64,000 nucleotides of DNA, taken from NCBI GenBank assembly GCA_017991415.1, contig JAGOQR010000001.1, forward strand, positions 109,385 to 173,384, given 5' to 3'. The position numbers and the translations under genes are program-made. Source of the DNA: Candidatus Magasanikiibacteriota bacterium. GTDB lineage: Bacteria > Patescibacteriota > Patescibacteriia > Magasanikbacterales > GWA2-37-8. The notes beneath the pieces are model-generated. The model ran no database searches. It was not told where the DNA came from and saw only the letters and a list, made by a program, of their open reading frames with translations. Positions 2,321 through 50,740 of the stretch are shown one piece after another; position 1 is the stretch's first letter, and every line of letters begins with the position of its first letter.

Positions 2321-3142
2321 TTACAATAATCCCATATACCAATGCACAATACTCTCTCCCCAAGACAAGCAAACAAAAGTGCCGATGGCTAAATAGGTAC
2401 CAAATGGGGTAGCTGACATGAGTGTTTTTTTCTTTGCCACTAATAAAACCACACTACATAGAGCACCCACAACATACGCGATAAAAAGCGCCACAAAAAC
2501 AACTGGCCAACCAAGCAATAGGCCCATCATAAGCCCCAGGCGCACATCTCCCCCACCTATCCATTTGCCCTTAGAGATAACAAACTGCAAAAGAAAAAAC
2601 CCGCCTGCAGCGAGCGATCCAATAAGCATTGAAGTTAAGTTATAGTCTAAATAAAAATTAAAAAATAAAGCAGCAACTGAACCGACCCAAACGAGCTCAG
2701 ATAAAATTTCTTGGTACAAATAATCGTAGACAAAAATAGTAATGAGCAAAATTGAGAAAGCGATGTCCCGTAAAAAATGTACTGGATTAAAATTAAATGT
2801 ACTAAGGTTCTGCCAGGTAACAAGCAATAAAATAAGCGGCGTAATTATTTCTACCATAATAAAATGTCTCGGAATAGGATTTTTACAGGTGCGACACTTT
2901 CCTCCGAGCACTAAAAAACTAATGACAGGTATATTTTCATACCAAGCTAATTGACGTCGACAGATAATACACATACTTCTCCCCGTAGTAATCCGAAAGT
3001 TTTCTCTCGTTCGCCAAACCCAAGCATTTAAAAAACTGCCGAAAGAAAGCCCGAGCAAAAAGATAATTGGGTAGAGAAGATCGCCAAGAGAAAAAAGATA
3101 ATACATATATTTTTTGAATAATACCCATTGTACCATAGTCAT
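2321..3142 (-). CDS. pilD: Prepilin leader peptidase (A24 family, PilD-like)
   Basis: 273 aa polytopic membrane protein. N-terminal CxxC...CxxC zinc motif (CIICRRQ...CRTCKNPI) typical of prepilin peptidases. Confidence 0.8.
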   Translation of the reverse strand: MTMVQWVLFKKYMYYLFSLGDLLYPIIFLLGLSFGSFLNAWVWRTRENFRITTGRSMCIICRRQLAWYENIPVISFLVLGGKCRTCKNPIPRHFIMVEIITPLILLLVTWQNLSTFNFNPVHFLRDIAFSILLITIFVYDYLYQEILSELVWVGSVAALFFNFYLDYNLTSMLIGSLAAGGFFLLQFVISKGKWIGGGDVRLGLMMGLLLGWPVVFVALFIAYVVGALCSVVLLVAKKKTLMSATPFGTYLAIGTFVCLSWGESIVHWYMGLL

Positions 3143-3198: not shown

Positions 3199-3633
3199 TT
3201 AGTCGGCAATTCCAGATGGACTGAGAGTAACTCCGCCACTGAGGCCGTTCATAGTAGTTTCCAAGGTAGCAGTTACACTATATGAGCTTGAAGCTGCAGT
3301 ATAGACGTAAGACTGTGTTCCAAGTGGGTCTGATGGAACTTGACCCATGTAAGGGTTAGCACACCCGGCTGTACCGAAACCAGAGGCATTAAGACAAGCG
3401 TAGTTGGTACTTCCTAAAGTAACGCCAGAACCGGTTGGATATGCGGTTTGATCGGTATAATAAAGTTCTAAAGCGGTTTGCAATTGTTTTAAATCTGAAA
3501 GACGTCTCGCATCGCGAGCTTTTTGTCTTGCATTTCCCAAAGCTACAACAGCCAAGGTTGACAATAAACCGATTATAGCTATTACTACCAACAACTCAAT
3601 TAAAGTAAAGCCTTTTGCATTCATTTTCTTCAT
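3199..3633 (-). CDS. Type IV pilin / pseudopilin
   Basis: N-terminal class III signal KGFTLIELLVVIAIIGLL (prepilin cleavage/methylation motif). 144 aa. Confidence 0.8.
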   Translation of the reverse strand: MKKMNAKGFTLIELLVVIAIIGLLSTLAVVALGNARQKARDARRLSDLKQLQTALELYYTDQTAYPTGSGVTLGSTNYACLNASGFGTAGCANPYMGQVPSDPLGTQSYVYTAASSSYSVTATLETTMNGLSGGVTLSPSGIAD

Positions 3634-7518: not shown

Positions 7519-8523
7519 ATGAAGAACTTGTTTTGGTCCATCTTGACGATGGCCGCCATCATGCTCAGTCTCAGCGCGTGCGACGACTACCAAGTGATGC
7601 CGCACAGCACCTGCACCCAGGACAGCGAGTGCCCAAACACCAGCGTGTGCATCGAGAATTCTTGCGTGCTCCAAGTACCGCTCACCTGCGTGGAGCTCGG
7701 CTGCCCAAATGGCACCGAGTGCCAAGATGACGTATGTGTTGAGTTGGCGCCGCCACACAATGACTGCGATGCCTTTCAGTGGATGACGACTTCCCAGTGG
7801 TATTGCAACTATACTGAGGGAGAACCAGCACCAGAACCGTGGATTTGCCATCTCAATACCACAGACGGTACTGCAAGCGATGGCAGCTGCAACATTCAAT
7901 GCGCTGGCAACTTCTGGCTACCAACCCAGGAGTTCGATATCGACATGAACGCATCGCCGCCGCAGCTAAAAACAGACTACTACGGTCGAGAGTTTACATG
8001 TACCCAATACGTGTACATACCTCCATCGGCAACCTGTGGTATTGCTGTTCAGGTTCCAAATAGCCTTTCGGTGTTTGTTCAGCCGACTGGCAACGCAAAC
8101 CTGCTCTGGTTCGACTTCGTCAAAGTCGGGCCAGATTCACCTGAATGTTCTCCAGAAATCGTCAGGATCGAAATCTTGGAGATGGACAACGCGTTTGGCT
8201 TTATCCCGAATCCAAAGATGCAGATCGGAATTAACAACTCCTTTCTCGTCGCTCCTCTAGCAAACTATGGGGAAGCCGATAGTCTCCTGCCATGGTGGAG
8301 CAAGACTTACTACCAATGGGATGGCGTCGCGCCAGTCGGCAAGAAGACCACTATCCTGTTCAACTGCGATGGCAACTGCGGTCCGCCCAACATGCCGTCT
8401 AACCCCATCGTGCTTCACACCAAACTCTTGCGCTACTGGTGGAGGAAGAACCCAACAGCGCCAACGGTCTCTGGCAACGCGGGGGCAGAACACACGATCT
8501 ACTTCACCCCTCCTACCCTCTGA
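7519..8523 (+). CDS. Cysteine-rich secreted lipoprotein (high-GC island 1)
   Basis: Signal peptide with lipobox LSLSAC. About 58% GC against a ~35% background. An N-terminal cluster of CxxxC motifs resembles EGF-like Cys repeats. 334 aa. The many overlapping ORFs on both strands are GC artefacts. Confidence 0.6.
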   Translation: MKNLFWSILTMAAIMLSLSACDDYQVMPHSTCTQDSECPNTSVCIENSCVLQVPLTCVELGCPNGTECQDDVCVELAPPHNDCDAFQWMTTSQWYCNYTEGEPAPEPWICHLNTTDGTASDGSCNIQCAGNFWLPTQEFDIDMNASPPQLKTDYYGREFTCTQYVYIPPSATCGIAVQVPNSLSVFVQPTGNANLLWFDFVKVGPDSPECSPEIVRIEILEMDNAFGFIPNPKMQIGINNSFLVAPLANYGEADSLLPWWSKTYYQWDGVAPVGKKTTILFNCDGNCGPPNMPSNPIVLHTKLLRYWWRKNPTAPTVSGNAGAEHTIYFTPPTL

Positions 8524-17509: not shown

Positions 17510-18160
17510 ATGGACATCAAAATCGAAATCCTCATCGGCGCTCCTACCTCGGTTCTGGGCGCCCTGGGTATTCGAGGCGCCAAGATTACCCTCACACCAA
17601 GGCAAAAGGGTAAGAGCCTCCCCCGCTTATGGATTGACAAAAAAGAGCACTTCTCCTACTTCTTCACCATCGAAGAGGCCCAAAAAGGACTAGACCGCAT
17701 CCTGATTTCTAGACCTAGGATTAAGATCAAGATTTTGCGGAGGCTGCGCAAAGCGGGTCTGTTCTGGGATATGGAGTCAGTCCTGTCCTACTGCCAGAAA
17801 CTCGCTGTTATCAAAGATTCAACATACGACTTCGTGAAGTGCACGCGTTGCGCCTACGCGTCGCTGGTGCCCCACGGCTGGATAGTCACAGAAGGGAAAC
17901 TGATCCAGACAAAGATTCCGATACTGCTCCACCAACAGGTCACAAACCTGAAAGACCTCATCTTTAGGTTCTGTGCCGAAGGAGTCTGGCTTGGCGAGAT
18001 CCCTCTCAAAGCAGCCCTTTGGGTGATCCATCAAGGCGCAAAGGCGCAAATGGGAGCAGACTCTCGAGGCCTTCTAAGACTGCTGCTACAAGACCCAATT
18101 CGACACCTCCGGGGGCCACTTCCAACAGACCACCACATCTGTCGCGAAACAGGTCCATAA
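17510..18160 (+). CDS. Hypothetical protein (high-GC island 2)
   Basis: 216 aa ORF at about 55% GC with no recognisable domain. TTGACA-N19-TTTTAT lies directly upstream and there is no SD. It is the least convincing of the seven high-GC islands. Confidence 0.4.
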   Translation: MDIKIEILIGAPTSVLGALGIRGAKITLTPRQKGKSLPRLWIDKKEHFSYFFTIEEAQKGLDRILISRPRIKIKILRRLRKAGLFWDMESVLSYCQKLAVIKDSTYDFVKCTRCAYASLVPHGWIVTEGKLIQTKIPILLHQQVTNLKDLIFRFCAEGVWLGEIPLKAALWVIHQGAKAQMGADSRGLLRLLLQDPIRHLRGPLPTDHHICRETGP

Positions 18161-33370: not shown

Positions 33371-34249
33371 TCATGGAAAGTGCAACCTAACCCCTGCCTG
33401 GCCATAGAGCGCCCAGTGATCAGTGGCGAGCAAACCGCCTTTAATCAAGGCAAAAAAACAATACCTACCACTATCATGACTACACCAGGTTCCTCCCAAC
33501 CCGGTAAGAAACATGGTATTGCTCTTACTAATCTTCGTCAAGGACTCTTTGTCCAAGGCGCTAAGAAGCGCTTGAGCAGACATGTCGGCATTAATTCGCC
33601 CATCTAACCCGGCTGTCTGCAGTGAAACAAGCGGGTCAACAGAAAATCTGCCAACAGGAATACTCAAACCGAGACTCAGGCCAATACTAGTCAACCCTCC
33701 GGTCACACCAATATGCTGTTTGGCAAAGTCAGAAAAATCAAACTTACCATCAGTCACTTCTCCCACTCGGACCAAGACCTTTTGAACATCAGTTTCCAAA
33801 AAGCTAATCCACTGGAGCTGACCGCTGCCAAACAACTCAAGACCTTGAGGAATCGCCAGTCGCCACGACAGAGAAAGGCCGAGTCCCGCACCTTCGGCAA
33901 GCAAGTCGGATTCCAGATTATTGCTCTGGTAACCCAAACTGTAGCCGCCTTCGATGAACTGGATCCCCACCCCCATCTGAAGACCGGGAATGTTCCTAGC
34001 TTCGACAACACAGTCCAAGCTCAGCGAGTGCGTACTGCTAGCGATCTTCACAGTCGTACTGTGAACAGACGAAGCCGAGAAGAATTCCCAGGAATCAGCC
34101 GCACTACACGGAAATTGGCCAGCAGGCTCCAGCTCAACTTCTGGAACAGAAGCTGGCGGACTCGCCATCGCCGGTAGCAACAAAGCTATCGAGCTCACAC
34201 AAAAGACCAAGAGCCACCGAACAACAGACTCCGGAAAGTTGATGTGCAT
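33371..34249 (-). CDS. Secreted hypothetical protein (high-GC island 3)
   Basis: 292 aa at about 58% GC, with a signal peptide and Gly/Ser/Leu-rich alternating segments suggestive of beta-rich structure. The 3' UTR folds into a G-U-containing 12-bp stem plus U-run terminator at ~33300-33345. Confidence 0.5.
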   Translation of the reverse strand: MHINFPESVVRWLLVFCVSSIALLLPAMASPPASVPEVELEPAGQFPCSAADSWEFFSASSVHSTTVKIASSTHSLSLDCVVEARNIPGLQMGVGIQFIEGGYSLGYQSNNLESDLLAEGAGLGLSLSWRLAIPQGLELFGSGQLQWISFLETDVQKVLVRVGEVTDGKFDFSDFAKQHIGVTGGLTSIGLSLGLSIPVGRFSVDPLVSLQTAGLDGRINADMSAQALLSALDKESLTKISKSNTMFLTGLGGTWCSHDSGRYCFFALIKGGLLATDHWALYGQAGVRLHFP

Positions 34250-36226: not shown

Positions 36227-36368
36227 ACTAAATTGTTTAGTGACCCGATAAAACTTTGGTCACTATAACTATGACACAAGAGATTCGAGTCTAAGGTTAG
36301 CTAAAATGCTACCTATAACTTAAGAAGGCACTAGTATAGCATAAAATAGGGGTTTTGTCAAGGTAATA

Positions 36369-36522: not shown

Positions 36523-37146
36523 GTGATGTATCGCGAAAGCGAAAGGACGACCGTGAGACTCACAAACATATACGTTTGCACCTCCTCCGCTGAGCTGCAA
36601 AATGCTCTTCAGGCTGCATTCCAGCCCTTTGAGTCCCTACCGAAGGGCAACTCTGGCGAAATGCTCGCTTGGGCCATGATCCGCTGGGTCCGCACAAAGA
36701 CCAAAGACGATGATCAGCTTAGCGCGGCGACTGCAGTTCTTCGACTCGTTCAACAGGCCAGAACTAAGGAGCACTGCACTGTCGAATTCGGGACCTCCCA
36801 CGTGAGCCTTCATACCCCTTACACCTCACGCACACAGATCAGTCTATATTGGTACCACAATGACAACTATCACGTTGAGGTAAAATTCGGAAACAGAGGC
36901 TCTGAGACGCGGGCGATGATAATCCTGGAAACGGCCGAACGAAATGGAGTAAAATTCGATGCTTACCACGATCAAAAACGCATCGAACGCCGAGAGGTAC
37001 TGGGTGCTCTGCTCCACCGAGCCATACAGCAACTCGAGCAGATCGAAGCTTCCCCGGTGAGAAAGGGCTTTCCCAGGCGCTACAAGACTGCGGCCATAAC
37101 CAAAGCTCGGGCCACTGTCGCCTTTTTCGAAGGTCTCACAGCGTAG
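36523..37146 (+). CDS. Hypothetical cytoplasmic protein (high-GC island 4)
   Basis: 207 aa at about 57% GC, with no signal peptide and no motif recognised. Confidence 0.45.
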   Translation: MMYRESERTTVRLTNIYVCTSSAELQNALQAAFQPFESLPKGNSGEMLAWAMIRWVRTKTKDDDQLSAATAVLRLVQQARTKEHCTVEFGTSHVSLHTPYTSRTQISLYWYHNDNYHVEVKFGNRGSETRAMIILETAERNGVKFDAYHDQKRIERREVLGALLHRAIQQLEQIEASPVRKGFPRRYKTAAITKARATVAFFEGLTA

Positions 37147-41059: not shown

Positions 41060-42793
41060 TTATTGATTATTAACAAAGTAGTCCAAATCTAAAAAGTTAT
41101 CATTTTCGTCTCTCCAGTCAGTATTAAAGAGGAGAGGCTCAGAATTGTCATTTAGAATCGAAAAAAGTTGCTGTTTTTCATCTTCAGTAAATAAACCCGC
41201 ACGAAAAGTTGTAAAATCTAAATCGTTCGCATTTACAATTTGATCAACTGCGGACAATAATTTTTCTGCTCTAGCATTACCAAAGGATTTACTTTGCTCA
41301 TCTATTTCTTGAGCGTCAAAAAATAATACTTCCAATGACTGATCGGATGGCGGTAAGGTTTTTAACTTTTTTACTCCTGTTTTATCAGCTTGAAGACTGG
41401 CTAATAAAAACTCTCGGTCTTGACAAAACACTATATACTTAAGTACTAAGCCTCGTTCAGCGTCGGTTAATTTAGAATCTAAAAAAGCAACTAATTCTTG
41501 TCGGCCTTGCTGCTGCAAGGCTTTATCAATTGCCTTATCTGCATTAAGTTCATGCTGATCAAGCCATGCTTGGTATCTATCGCGCATTAAAGGTGATAAA
41601 GTTTTAAACTGAGCTTCAATTTCTTTATACCTTTTATATGCTTGCTCTTTATTCATCTTACTTGTAATTTCTAACCGAGCTTGTAACGCCTTATCTCGAT
41701 CAAAATTGGGGTCCATTTTTTTAACAAACTCATCCACCAGTTTATAGTCTGCTTCTGGTAAATTTAATTCACCATCAAAATAAGCCCCTCCAATTTCTGC
41801 CCAATATTCTTCGGCTTTTATATTCAATTCTTCTTCTTTATCTTCATTACTAATTGATTCAACATATGCTGATATATACCGATCTTCAGATTGGACACGA
41901 TCATATACTGCTACTTTCAAACTTGCTCGTTCAGTTTTAGTAAGCCTCCCACTTCTCTTCCAGTCTCCCGCATGACTACCTTCATGGGCGAGCGTCCTAC
42001 TCCATATCGATCGTGAAGACGCGCTTTCTTTTGTCACAGAAATAAGTTCTGTGCCAAAAATTTCAATCCCATATGCCGCACCTTTCATTCCTCTCCAAAA
42101 AACTATACTGGTGTCAGCACCGCCCAAACCACCCTCAGCAGTCGCCACTGCCTGAGAATGTTTATGCAATTCTGATCCATAACTTTCATGCATCGCATAC
42201 CTCTCATTTATAAAATCAATCAACCCAATTTCATTAGTAAACCCCTTTGGAAATGTTGCTAAAATGGCATCAATACGTTCTGGCGTAGCCTCAGAATCTA
42301 AATTCTGCAGATTATCATAATTAATAGCTAGATGATGATTAGTATCATACTCTCTAGAATCAAGCCGCCTGCTGAGCTTATAAAGCTGACCTCCAAGAGA
42401 TGCTGCTAACCCAAGATAGACGGCTGCCCATTGCAATTTATACTTTGTTTGCACTTCCCTCAACGCAGCAACTAACTGCTTGTCTCCTGCTTCTTTCTCA
42501 TCCACATTCCAATCCTCATTATTATTTTCTAGTTCTAAAGCTTCTTTTTCTAATCTATTAAGAACCTGACTCATATGACCCATACGCACCTGTTCTGCAA
42601 ATTCTTCATCTGTATCAAGCAGTTCATAAAAAAGATCTGGATACCCTCTATCAACCCAAATTTGACTACCTCTCACAAGATTTTCATCTCCTAAAAACTG
42701 CTCTATGCGCTTCTGCATATCAATTGCCTGAACATCAAGCTTCTTATTGTTATGATCATGCGCAATAACAGACTCTCCTCTTCCTCTTTCCAT
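41060..42793 (-). CDS. Acidic hypothetical protein with an HExxH zincin-like motif
   Basis: 577 aa with no signal peptide. LAHEGSHAGDW contains HEGSH. Confidence 0.4.
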   Translation of the reverse strand: MERGRGESVIAHDHNNKKLDVQAIDMQKRIEQFLGDENLVRGSQIWVDRGYPDLFYELLDTDEEFAEQVRMGHMSQVLNRLEKEALELENNNEDWNVDEKEAGDKQLVAALREVQTKYKLQWAAVYLGLAASLGGQLYKLSRRLDSREYDTNHHLAINYDNLQNLDSEATPERIDAILATFPKGFTNEIGLIDFINERYAMHESYGSELHKHSQAVATAEGGLGGADTSIVFWRGMKGAAYGIEIFGTELISVTKESASSRSIWSRTLAHEGSHAGDWKRSGRLTKTERASLKVAVYDRVQSEDRYISAYVESISNEDKEEELNIKAEEYWAEIGGAYFDGELNLPEADYKLVDEFVKKMDPNFDRDKALQARLEITSKMNKEQAYKRYKEIEAQFKTLSPLMRDRYQAWLDQHELNADKAIDKALQQQGRQELVAFLDSKLTDAERGLVLKYIVFCQDREFLLASLQADKTGVKKLKTLPPSDQSLEVLFFDAQEIDEQSKSFGNARAEKLLSAVDQIVNANDLDFTTFRAGLFTEDEKQQLFSILNDNSEPLLFNTDWRDENDNFLDLDYFVNNQ

Positions 42794-42992
42794 AAAACTT
42801 CTTTAAGAAATAAATCTATAATACTGAATTAATATAATAGCTCTAAAGAAGAATAAAATCAAACGAATTAGTAAAAAAATAGAGACTAAAATCTTTTTTA
42901 AATAAAAGCGCACCGTGGGTACAGTGCGCGAGGACGGCAGCGAGATGTCGTCGAAGACGAACAAGTCGCATGTTGCTGAAAGAACGAAGGAA

Positions 42993-43652
42993 CTAGTGCA
43001 AGCAGCGAAACTTGGCAGGCGCGGGACGATTCGCATCGTCTTCGGCCAACCTAGCTGCTGGAGCCGTGTAGCTCGAGTCGCAACTTGCGTGGCGGCAGAT
43101 TTCTTTCACATCTGCGCCAGTGACACGCCAACTGCTTGCTGGCGTAGTCATCACAGCGTGCGATCCTTCGGCAAGATGCTCTGCACCGAGCGCATGACCG
43201 AGCTCGTGAGCGACTACGTTCTGCATCATCCAGGTGCAGGACGTGTTGGGAGCACAAGCGCCGTTGCCATAGACGAAGACGTTGTCTCCGTCATACTCTC
43301 CGGCGAGCGAATCGCTCTCATCTTCGGGACGAGCTCCTTCCCACAGATCCCTACCCTCTTCGGTGGGGTAGTTCTCGTAGATCCAGTACACACACCGGAT
43401 TCCGCTGTTCTCTCCGCTACCGTAGAGACCCGGCTTCTCGCTGCCGTAGACGAAGAACTTGTTCTTGTTCTCGTATCGGGCATTGAGATTGAGATCGTCG
43501 ATAGCCGCCTTGATCTGGTCGATCTGCGGCTGAAGCCAGCCGCCACAGGCATAAACCGTGACGGTTTCCTGCCTGGCCACCTCTGGAAGAGGGGGCGCTC
43601 CTTCGCAGGCCGTAAGCACTGCGAAGCAACACAGAAGAATGAAACACTTCAT
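42993..43652 (-). CDS. Lipoprotein metzincin-type zinc metalloprotease (high-GC island 5)
   Basis: Signal peptide with lipobox VLTAC. Extended zinc-binding motif VVAHELGHALGAEH (HExxHxxGxxH). About 62% GC. 219 aa. Confidence 0.6.
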   Translation of the reverse strand: MKCFILLCCFAVLTACEGAPPLPEVARQETVTVYACGGWLQPQIDQIKAAIDDLNLNARYENKNKFFVYGSEKPGLYGSGENSGIRCVYWIYENYPTEEGRDLWEGARPEDESDSLAGEYDGDNVFVYGNGACAPNTSCTWMMQNVVAHELGHALGAEHLAEGSHAVMTTPASSWRVTGADVKEICRHASCDSSYTAPAARLAEDDANRPAPAKFRCLH

Positions 43653-43722
43653 GTGAGACTCCTCTCAGGCTTTGGCCTGTCGATTGTCATAGTGCCAACT
43701 GTAGGCACGATGATATAATCGC

Positions 43723-43751
43723 ATTATACCAAAAAACAAGGCTTTTGTCAA
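43723..43751 (-). promoter_or_regulatory. Consensus promoter TTGACA-N17-TATAAT for the metzincin gene, near-identical to the island 1 promoter
   Basis: Minus-strand sequence is AAGGCTTGACAAAAGCCTTGTTTTTTGGTATAATGC, against island 1's TTGACAAAAGCGTCTTTTTTTGATATAATGC. The -35 again lies in a hairpin. The leader has an AGGAG SD 6 nt before the ATG. Confidence 0.55.
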
Positions 43752-43820
43752 GCCTTTTCTGCTTATTTTTTGCTAATTATAGAGAAAAAATATACTCCTT
43801 CCACTCATTCTATCTGCCTA

Positions 43821-45806: not shown

Positions 45807-45835
45807 TTGACAAGCGCCACTTTTTATGCTAAAAT
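45807..45835 (+). promoter_or_regulatory. Promoter module TTGACA-N17-TAAAAT upstream of high-GC island 6
   Basis: TTGACAAGCGCCACTTTTTATGCTAAAAT. It is followed by a nested-hairpin leader at 45851-45898 (AGCCCCTA...CCCGTAGC-aaatcc-GCTACGGG...TAGGGGGCT), then an AAAGGA SD and a GTG start. Confidence 0.45.
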
Positions 45836-45960
45836 TAGAAGTTAATTTTCAGCCCCTATACTGGTGCCCGTAGCAAATCCGCTACGGGAGTCCGTAGGGG
45901 GCTGACACGCCTCCTTAAATAGTTTTAATTGGCTCAACAAGATCAACGAAAGGACTACCA

Positions 45961-46467
45961 GTGCCCACTCGTCTTTCCCTTCTGGCCCTCGTGCTCGCAG
46001 CTTGCACCGCGGTGCACCGCCCCAACCTCTCCGACGACACGGTCAACAAGAAGACCAACGTCTTCTGGCAGATCGAGGTGCTCAGCCCGCCGCCGAACTG
46101 CGGCCTGATCGTGTTCCATAACCAGCCCGGCGAAACCACAGCTCTGCCGATGCAAGTCGTGGAGGGCAAGGCCAACGTATTCAGTGCCACGTCCCCCATC
46201 GATACGCCGCTCAAGTTCATGATCGAGGTGAAGATTCGCGACAACACCAACGAGTGTGTCTCCTGGACGAACTACTGCGGCCCCATCACCATGCGGCATG
46301 GCCGTTCGCTCCAGACTTTGCACAAAACACGCCCAATCTTCTGGGCGCTCATGTCCTTCGCCGAGGGCGATGGCATCTCGAGCTTGAACTCAAGTACTGT
46401 CGAGCCGTTTCCAGGCTGGACACCGCTCACCTGCGAGTACCGTTCGTTCGGCTGGAACGAGAACTGA
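45961..46467 (+). CDS. Lipoprotein, hypothetical (high-GC island 6)
   Basis: GTG start 6 nt after the AAAGGA SD. Lipobox LAAC. 168 aa at about 60% GC. Confidence 0.5.
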   Translation: MPTRLSLLALVLAACTAVHRPNLSDDTVNKKTNVFWQIEVLSPPPNCGLIVFHNQPGETTALPMQVVEGKANVFSATSPIDTPLKFMIEVKIRDNTNECVSWTNYCGPITMRHGRSLQTLHKTRPIFWALMSFAEGDGISSLNSSTVEPFPGWTPLTCEYRSFGWNEN

Positions 46468-46603
46468 TCAGGCCACCAAGCCAGATCCCTGAGCGACTCG
46501 GACGCACTGCGCGACCGATGCGACTCAGAAATACATCCGGGCCGCTCACGCAATGTAATAATTACTTGTTACGTTGCGTGAGCTCGGATGTATATTACAT
46601 TTT

Positions 46604-46640
46604 TAAAAAAACCTTTCTCTAATCAGAAAGGTTTTTTTAT
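46604..46640. terminator. Intrinsic terminator
   Basis: AAAAAAACCTTTCT-ctaatc-AGAAAGGTTTTTTTATT. Just upstream is a long imperfect palindrome at 46532-46597. Confidence 0.7.
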
Positions 46641-50266: not shown

Positions 50267-50740
50267 TCACCCGTAGAACCCCAGCCACTTCTGATACCAG
50301 TGCGGCGGGTAGACCTCGTCGGCGCGCAGAACCTGGTCGTCCTCAGACGAGCTGACCTCAACAGGGTTGGTTCGCACATCCATGTTCACGAGGAACTGGA
50401 AGTCGCACGCCCCCTTGCCGAGGTAGGTCGAAATCACAGCCACACCCCGATCATCAGACCATACCCGACCGTAGTAGTCGAAGCCGCTGTACCCGACGAG
50501 CGGGATGCTGAGCTTGAACCCAACTAGCGCACAGAACGGCTTGGAGCTTCGTAGGACGATGTTGGCCATCCGCCCCTTCTCCTTGCTTCCCTCGTAGCGC
50601 CAGACGATCAGATGGTCCGACCGTTTGACGAAGTCCTGCATGAAGCCGAACTTCTTGAGGTGCTCGCGACCAAGGAAGATCGCAAGCGGCACGAAGACAA
50701 GAACCAGGGTGACCAGAACAATAATGAGAGCCGTCATCAA
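50267..50740 (-). CDS. Membrane-anchored hypothetical protein (high-GC island 7)
   Basis: 157 aa at about 58% GC, with an N-terminal TM helix. The likely ATG is at 50737 because the first codon of the track ORF is TTG. The promoter TTGACC-N17-TATGCT at 50783-50811 (minus strand) has the same architecture as the other islands. The leader has a CGACTGCA...TAGTCG hairpin and a GGAGG SD. Confidence 0.45.
   Translation of the reverse strand: MMTALIIVLVTLVLVFVPLAIFLGREHLKKFGFMQDFVKRSDHLIVWRYEGSKEKGRMANIVLRSSKPFCALVGFKLSIPLVGYSGFDYYGRVWSDDRGVAVISTYLGKGACDFQFLVNMDVRTNPVEVSSSEDDQVLRADEVYPPHWYQKWLGFYG

Follow-up and report, generated by a model that had tools for sequence, protein, structure and literature searches.

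The subject of this analysis was a stretch of 64,000 nucleotides (positions 109,385 to 173,384 of contig JAGOQR010000001.1, assembly GCA_017991415.1; hereafter the window, 39.1% GC, to which all coordinates below refer) from the metagenome-assembled genome (MAG) of an uncultured, small-genome groundwater bacterium, Candidatus Magasanikbacteria, of the Candidate Phyla Radiation (CPR). Sequence comparison and structural modelling of one minus-strand gene in this window suggest, with a probability that we put at roughly 0.8, that it encodes an active, lipid-anchored, minimal zinc endopeptidase of the metzincin type that resembles the matrix metalloproteinases (MMPs). Its product of 219 amino acids (aa) was an exact match to MBP6859140.1 (locus KBC69_00750), a 'hypothetical protein' of Candidatus Magasanikbacteria, and the exact protein was present on 3 contigs, one of them of 474 kb.

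A first-pass annotation of this DNA had described the product as a lipoprotein with the lipobox LTAC and a HExxHxxGxxH metzincin signature, and both features held up. The N-terminus, MKCFILLCCFAVLTAC, contained Lys2, a hydrophobic core and the lipobox L-T-A-C with Cys16; the pattern [LVI][ASTVI][GAS]C was found as MKCFILLCCFAVL-T-A-C16, in keeping with the bacterial lipoprotein rule (PROSITE PS51257). Cys16 is predicted to carry the lipid and to be residue 1 of the mature protein, for which a length of 204 aa, a mass of ~22.3 kDa and a pI of 4.7 were computed. The metzincin signature was present as HELGHALGAEH and, in the structural model described below, spanned the predicted helix 143-154 and the turn following it. 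No other HExxHxxGxxH was found when the window was translated in six frames, and 1 of 200 shuffled sequences had any such motif (mean 0.005). Met168, the candidate methionine of the Met-turn, was found 9 residues after His159.

A search of 5.8 billion proteins revealed only 7 relatives, at 65-100% identity. Among 1.84 billion cluster representatives, a profile search picked out 42 clusters at E<=1e-3; some 12 of these were full-length proteins of ~200 aa that all had a lipoprotein-type N-terminus; a word-indexed profile search (17 matches) added little. The family alignment comprised 24 sequences with identities down to 23%. Cys16, His149, Glu150, His153 and His159 were invariant in all 24 members, and Gly156, Asp181, Cys186 and Cys191 were nearly invariant. 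The column of Met168 held Met in 18 members and Leu in six. The best homologues were checked for HExxH proteins that are not proteases, and all of them kept the full catalytic motif.

Peptidase_M10 (PF00413) was matched by 17 of the 24 members at E<0.01 (best 5e-7), more than any other Pfam family, and a PF00413 assignment was already precomputed for the member P0006 and for some distant members. Comparison of the family profile with the PDB revealed a match to MT1-MMP at 7.5e-6 which covered HELGHALGLEH and the Met-turn. In this alignment the family segment ...HELGHalgleH...svm was placed on HELGHALGLEHSSDPSAIM of MT1-MMP and the conserved Met on the Met-turn Met (...SAIMA), which makes Met168 the candidate Met-turn methionine; a weak second segment paired strand 1 and helix A. 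A single-sequence alignment to MMP-2 ran on through helix C, where xxDVxxxC of the family was aligned with LSQDDIKGI.

The first-pass annotation had proposed that a zincin fold and a Met-turn downstream of the third His be looked for in a predicted structure; evidence of the fold came from the model and that of the Met-turn from the alignments. An AlphaFold2 (AF2) model made from only the 7 close homologues was discarded (pLDDT 34.5); that made with the 24-sequence alignment had a pLDDT of 83.6 and a pTM of 0.83. Its elements were a strand at 31-36, a helix at 41-57, strands at 67-73 and 86-91, an extra helix at 98-107, strands at 118-120 and 125-128, the active-site helix at 143-154, a long loop and a helix at 179-188, giving the order b1-aA-b2-b3-(extra helix)-b4-b5-aB-loop-aC. 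The five-stranded sheet, helix B and C-terminal helix C that define the metzincin fold were thus all found in the model, and the features of clan MA(M), namely the extended HExxHxxGxxH motif and, by alignment, the Met-turn Met, were found in the protein. The top Foldseek matches of the model included the karilysin structures 2xs4 and 4in9. The modelled fold is supported as that of a metzincin, closest to MMP catalytic domains.

Like matrixin/MMP domains (M10A, PF00413), the window protein had a HExxHxxGxxH motif in which His is the third ligand, a Met-turn Met with almost the same spacing, their order of secondary-structure elements and an Asp-containing helix-C segment which could be aligned, and these domains gave the best profile and structure matches. 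In contrast to matrixins, it had neither a prodomain nor the PRCGxPD cysteine switch, as only ~14 residues separated Cys16 from strand 1 (aa 31); among bacterial MMPs, karilysin of Tannerella forsythia is one whose pro-segment is very short. There was no His in aa 92-128 (strand 3 to strand 5), which makes the structural-zinc site of MMPs impossible here, and helix 98-107 replaced the S-loop. Ser directly after the third His is a family-specific rule of MMPs, whereas the window protein had Leu160 at this position and the family column was variable (L/Q/A/T/V/S/Y/D/F). An N-terminal lipid anchor, probable disulfides and a Cys-containing C-terminal tail (aa 192-219) were further differences. The protein is matrixin-like, not a canonical matrixin. 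The earlier description of it as matrixin- or snapalysin-like was therefore right in its first half only: snapalysin, the small neutral protease of Streptomyces (M7), has Asp as third zinc ligand (HExxHxxGxxD), whereas the third ligand here is the invariant His159; it is also not a lipoprotein, and MMPs gave stronger sequence and profile matches than it did. Fragilysin (BFT, M10C) of Bacteroides fragilis is likewise a secreted metzincin, has the near-identical local motif AHELGHxLGAEH and gave PDB profile matches at 1e-5. Its large inhibitory prodomain has no equivalent in the 219-aa protein, however, and the 397-aa fragilysin chains matched at the motif only.

The mature protein contained seven Cys besides Cys16. 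Cys36 and Cys87 were jointly absent from three (P0041, P0025 and P0026) of the four members without Cys36, and Cys133 and Cys139 were present or absent jointly in most members; the five exceptions with only one of the latter two were P0010, P0014, P0016, P0028 and P0018 (gap in one column). These co-occurrence patterns, together with the near-invariance of Cys186 and Cys191, fit the probable disulfides Cys36-Cys87, Cys133-Cys139 and Cys186-Cys191. The linker between anchor and domain (aa 17-30) held a conserved [YFW]-x-E-[IVL] element, including Glu24, which was modelled at high confidence.

CPR bacteria are thought to live attached to other microbial cells, on which they rely for building blocks. 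The mechanism that we propose, in which we infer lipidation, activity, disulfides and substrate alike, would start at a strong consensus promoter, from which the housekeeping sigma factor would transcribe the protease gene on its own. After export of the preprotein by the Sec system, Cys16 would receive a diacylglycerol and the 15-residue signal peptide would be removed, leaving the 204-residue mature protein anchored on the outside of the cell membrane. There, His149, His153 and His159 would hold Zn2+, Glu150 would activate water as the general base and Met168 would pack under the metal site, and the three probable disulfides would stabilise the small domain outside the cell. As there is no prodomain, the enzyme would be either constitutively active or subject to the short N-terminal linker, with its conserved Glu24, as its sole control. 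By analogy with the lifestyle generally attributed to CPR bacteria, its most likely role would be the cleavage of extracellular or host-surface proteins by an auxotrophic episymbiont, for peptide scavenging or host interaction.

Some observations weigh against an active MMP-like protease. The Peptidase_M10 score of the window protein itself was 21.1 bits, below the gathering cut-off of 24.0; the six relatives with Leu at the Met-turn column included the four closest outside this genome; the seven non-anchor Cys leave one, Cys217 in a C-terminal region with pLDDT<50, unpaired, or else the pairing differs; and the conserved ABC-2-type transporter neighbour described below has no evident link to proteolysis. 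The Leu substitutions, the lack of a prodomain to restrain a surface protease and the membrane or envelope neighbours of the gene (the CmpB-like protein, the SH3-domain secreted protein and the ABC-2 transporter) would also suit a non-catalytic protein of metzincin fold, a pseudoprotease or binding protein, or a maturation or shedding protease directed at the surface proteins of the cell itself. We regard this as rather unlikely: the four catalytic residues were invariant at identities down to 23%, which argues for retained catalysis, and Met-to-Leu at the Met-turn is tolerated in metzincin mutagenesis studies. These points count against the non-catalytic version; they do not tell self from non-self substrates, so that a protease acting on the cell's own surface proteins may fit them equally well. 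Membership of another metzincin family, be it snapalysin (M7), adamalysin/reprolysin (M12B), fragilysin (M10C) or archaemetzincin (M54), is in our judgement unlikely. Sub-threshold Pfam matches to Reprolysin_3/4/5, centred on the motif, were nearly as strong as that to M10, weak sub-threshold NCBIfam matches to fragilysin and a myxobacterial metalloprotease were obtained, and the small size and the lack of structural metal sites recall snapalysin. No reprolysin model, however, was matched by more than 10 members, against the 17 for M10, the fragilysin prodomain that is missing here has ~190 residues, the third ligand is not that of snapalysin, and the xxDVxxxC segment after the Met-turn aligned with the helix-C motif of MMPs.

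Features of the protease gene and the other GC-rich open reading frames (ORFs) of the window.
Feature	Position in window	Strand	Basis or remark
Coding sequence (CDS) of lipoprotein metzincin, 219 aa	42993..43652	minus	ORF list, homologues and fold model
Predicted lipoprotein signal peptide, aa 1-15, and lipobox L13-T14-A15-C16	43605..43652	minus	Sequence; Cys16 in 24/24 members
Predicted zinc-binding/catalytic motif H149-E150-L-G-H153-A-L-G156-A-E-H159 (aa 149-159), within VVAHELGHALGAEH	43176-43208	minus	Sequence and conservation
Candidate Met-turn Met168 codon, context HAVMTTP	43149..43151	minus	Family column and MT1-MMP alignment
Sigma-70-type promoter TTGACAAAAGCCTTGTTTTTTGGTATAAT: -35, 17-nt spacer, extended TG, -10	43723..43751	minus	Promoter scan
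Hairpin AAGGCTTGACAAAAGCCTT followed by T-run	43738..43756	minus	Terminator-like site in scan
5' untranslated region (UTR), ~64 nt, start of transcription inferred; two small hairpins and AGGAG	43653..43716	minus	Sequence
Shine-Dalgarno (SD) AGGAG	43659-43663	minus	Sequence; 6 nt before ATG
Intrinsic terminator GCGCACTGTACCCACGGTGCGC then TTTTATTT	42908..42929	minus	9-bp stem, 6 GC pairs, T-run
GC-rich ORF	7519-8523	plus	Lipobox, 19 Cys
GC-rich ORF	17510-18160	plus	GC3 outlier
GC-rich ORF	33371-34249	minus	Signal-peptide-like N-terminus
GC-rich ORF	36523-37146	plus	GC3 outlier
GC-rich ORF, 168 aa, KBC69_00770	45961-46467	plus	Lipobox, GC3 0.82
GC-rich ORF	50267-50740	minus	TM-like N-terminal hydrophobic segment

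The perfect consensus promoter and strong SD of the first-pass annotation were both confirmed. In the promoter scan the protease promoter, TTGACA-17-TATAAT with TG upstream of the -10, matched the extended -10 consensus at 12 of 12 positions, and it was one of 4 near-perfect promoters of this type in the 64-kb window, against 0.07 expected. The promoter was conserved, as GGCTTGACAAAAGCC-TGTTTTGTGGTATAAT, before the homologous gene in the related contigs L001/L006, L002/L007 and L010 and in L011, an unlinked groundwater contig. Its -35 box was located in the loop and 3' arm of a hairpin (43738..43756) resembling a terminator for the CmpB-like gene upstream; the stem was kept in L001 and L002 through the paired change AAGGC/GCCTT to GGGGC/GCCCT. 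The RNA fold of the 5' UTR (-21 kcal/mol, z = -1.6) was not significant alone. A small hairpin at 43666-43679, directly 5' of the SD, was kept in 4 relatives, with 2 compensatory pairs, in L010; an Rfam scan of the window revealed a tRNA only, with no known riboregulator in the protease 5' UTR. Downstream of the gene, a CGCACCG...CGGTGCG hairpin in L001 and L002 was equivalent to the intrinsic terminator of the window, and no clear terminator hairpin was seen at this place in L010. The protease gene is a monocistronic unit.

In minus-strand order the locus consisted of genes for a DUF1761 protein, a GC-rich plus-strand orphan, an SH3-domain protein, a rhodanese, the CmpB-like protein, the protease, a 577-aa and a 148-aa protein of unknown kind, an ABC ATPase and an ABC-2 permease. 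The protease gene was directly upstream of the same ABC_tran/ABC2_membrane pair in the MAGs of L001 and L002, with a protein 70-73% identical to that of the window, and it had the same slot in a third MAG, L010, with a protein only ~35% identical; a related-locus search with close alignment revealed only the two genomes already known. The 577-aa and 148-aa ORFs were absent from this position in all three. The 577-aa protein (41060-42793, minus strand), which adjoins the protease downstream, itself contains a HExxH motif (TLAHEGSHAGDW, HEGSH) and has no obvious signal peptide; it had no Pfam, NCBIfam or PDB sequence match. The sequence L001/L006 (CAZUFD010000002.1, GCA_964619625.1) is titled 'uncultured Gammaproteobacteria bacterium', a label that is probably wrong, as it was collinear over >12 kb with the Candidatus Magasanikbacteria contig JACOYB010000007.1, with genes 77-100% identical.

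The protease protein changes faster than the products of the flanking genes, as judged by sequence identity: between the window and L001/L002 it was 73% for the protease versus 86-90% for the ABC ATPase and helicase, and between the window and L010 it was 35% versus 85% for the ABC ATPase. An unbootstrapped neighbour-joining (NJ) tree grouped the window clade, P0008 and the L010 protein together, and placed the sequences of GC-rich context in a sister group which also held one sequence of AT-rich context. Given this grouping of the L010 protein, rapid divergence may explain its low identity as well as xenologous replacement at that locus would.

The first-pass annotation had placed the gene in an island of ~62% GC. 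The island (~42,908-43,720) was real and its composition shifted abruptly at both ends, but the CDS had a mean of 57.6% GC (0.60/0.48/0.65 at codon positions 1, 2 and 3; GC1/2/3) versus the 39.1% of the whole window, and 62-63% was reached in some 100-bp windows only. The GC contents of gene and flank were 0.58 and 0.43 in L001, 0.57 and 0.43 in L002, 0.58 and 0.47 in L005, 0.51 and 0.39 in L010 and 0.60 and 0.42 in L011, and GC3 was 0.53-0.70 in every protease copy at AT-rich loci. The family genes of two GC-rich contigs, L008 (69%) and L009 (62%), matched their surroundings in composition. Back-translation of the protease with the codon usage of the window predicted 46.6% GC, so that ~11 of the 18 excess points derive from codon choice and ~7 from amino-acid composition. 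At four-fold sites, the flanking genes of the window and of L001/L002 were 0.32-0.45 identical versus 0.26-0.34 expected by chance, whereas the protease genes were 0.45-0.50 identical versus 0.27-0.30 expected; either the synonymous sites of the protease are slower than those of the flanks, or the copies share more recent ancestry. Because the flanks are near synonymous saturation and the gene is in the same slot, its acquisition, if any, predates the divergence of these genomes. The GC-rich codons may come from a maintained bias or from repeated exchange.

An origin of the gene by fresh import from a GC-rich bacterium, perhaps the host of the episymbiont, as a foreign 'effector island' not yet adapted to its new genome, would account for the excess of GC and the share of it due to codon choice, for the relatives that are native to L008 and L009 and for the NJ tree, which places the GC-context sequences between two AT-context lineages. 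It is nevertheless quite improbable. The gene had the same slot upstream of the ABC pair, with the same AT-rich consensus promoter, in L001, L002 and L010; its GC3 was high in every copy although the four-fold sites of the flanks are near saturation; no flanking repeats or mobility genes were found around it, and tblastn against plasmid and phage collections revealed no protease homologue. A recent transfer is not plausible, whereas an ancient transfer from a GC-rich lineage is. Parsons & Fournier 2025 (PMC12587646) have described Pfam-defined MMP homologues from Parcubacteria-type CPR genomes, likewise members of the MMP family, which in the past moved horizontally between the CPR and other bacteria. 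Since the bacterial sequences of that study were drawn from Pfam PF00413, and the scores of the window protein and of most close relatives fall below the PF00413 cut-off, the lipoprotein family was probably not included. With CPR MMPs on record, the same locus in three other genomes and seven GC-rich outlier genes in the window, the first-pass description of an unexpected effector-like protease in a GC island was overstated. The abrupt composition change at both ends might also point to an assembly or binning chimera, or to a 267-aa antisense ORF (42915..43718, plus strand) as the true gene, given the length of this ORF and its presence among the predicted proteins of public collections (P0060, sources NCBI and Logan). 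We find neither credible: four further data sets (L001, L002, L003 and L010) yielded the same gene and context in independent assemblies, and the exact protein was on 3 contigs; promoter, SD and terminator were all on the minus strand and flush with the protease ORF; GC3>GC1>GC2 held in the minus-strand frame; and homologues, conserved catalytic residues and a confident fold were obtained for the minus-strand product only. The antisense ORF is most likely a stop-codon-poor artefact of GC-rich sequence.

Analysis of the window revealed 7 ORFs, the protease included, that were GC3 outliers (GC3 0.53-0.82 vs ~0.3). The other six had a GC content of 0.51-0.60, and none had a significant Pfam match. 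Export-type signals among the seven comprised 3 lipoboxes, 1 signal-peptide-like sequence and 1 N-terminal hydrophobic segment, and all 7 had a GC content 6-17 points above the value for the same proteins with host codon usage. Three of the four near-perfect extended -10 promoters of the window preceded GC-rich lipoprotein genes; the fourth (36333-36361, minus strand) preceded a DEAD-box helicase gene of ordinary composition and was kept in L006 (10904-10932) and L007 (9281-9309). The idea that consensus promoters are special to the GC islands was rejected on account of this helicase gene; as its promoter is conserved, the promoter type is a general strong promoter of these genomes and not a property of the islands. 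A mobile-cassette idea was also rejected, as the GC-rich islands shared no boundary repeats, only similar promoters.

A second GC-rich unit (45807-46640) had a near-consensus promoter (45807-45835), a GC-rich leader of ~125 nt with an evident hairpin (~45850-45905) and two palindromes, one at 46544-46583 and one, with a T-run after it, at 46604-46639. Its product, KBC69_00770, had no homologue but itself among 5.8 billion proteins. The product of the ORF at 33371-34249, between the PMSR and thymidine-kinase genes, was 28-29% identical to those of the same-slot genes in L001 (10969-11895) and L002 (11081-11998), which were 95% identical to each other; the flanks of this slot (PMSR, helicase) were 75-90% identical. 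Here, too, a GC-rich gene at a conserved locus has evolved fast or been replaced.

A possible, if doubtful, generalisation is that the protease is one of a set of GC-rich, fast-evolving genes, mostly with export signals, that are single-gene units between conserved Magasanikbacteria backbone genes; a native consensus promoter precedes three of them. Synonymous-site selection or biased gene conversion would actively maintain their GC-rich codons, or exchange with GC-rich partner organisms would continually refresh them; the codons would not be a fading trace of transfer. If true, this class of GC-rich genes would mark the cell-surface interface between episymbionts and their hosts.

Elsewhere in the window, a 144-aa ORF (3199-3633, minus strand) was read from its translation to start with MKKMNAKGFTLIELLVVIAIIG, a typical N-terminus of type IV pilins, and the adjacent 273-aa membrane protein (2321-3142, minus strand) may be its prepilin peptidase.

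The family described here, which is annotated only as 'hypothetical protein', would be a new, minimal and lipid-anchored branch of a well-known enzyme clan. As a family with neither prodomain nor structural zinc, it indicates how far the MMP scaffold can be stripped, and the protease is small enough for easy expression and crystallisation. Very few CPR surface enzymes are understood, and a strongly promoted, tethered protease of ~22 kDa is a plausible tool for peptide harvest or for remodelling of the host surface. The more unusual aspect is the persistence of a GC-rich CDS in AT-rich genomes with near-saturated flanks, which poses a small, testable puzzle of genome-composition evolution.

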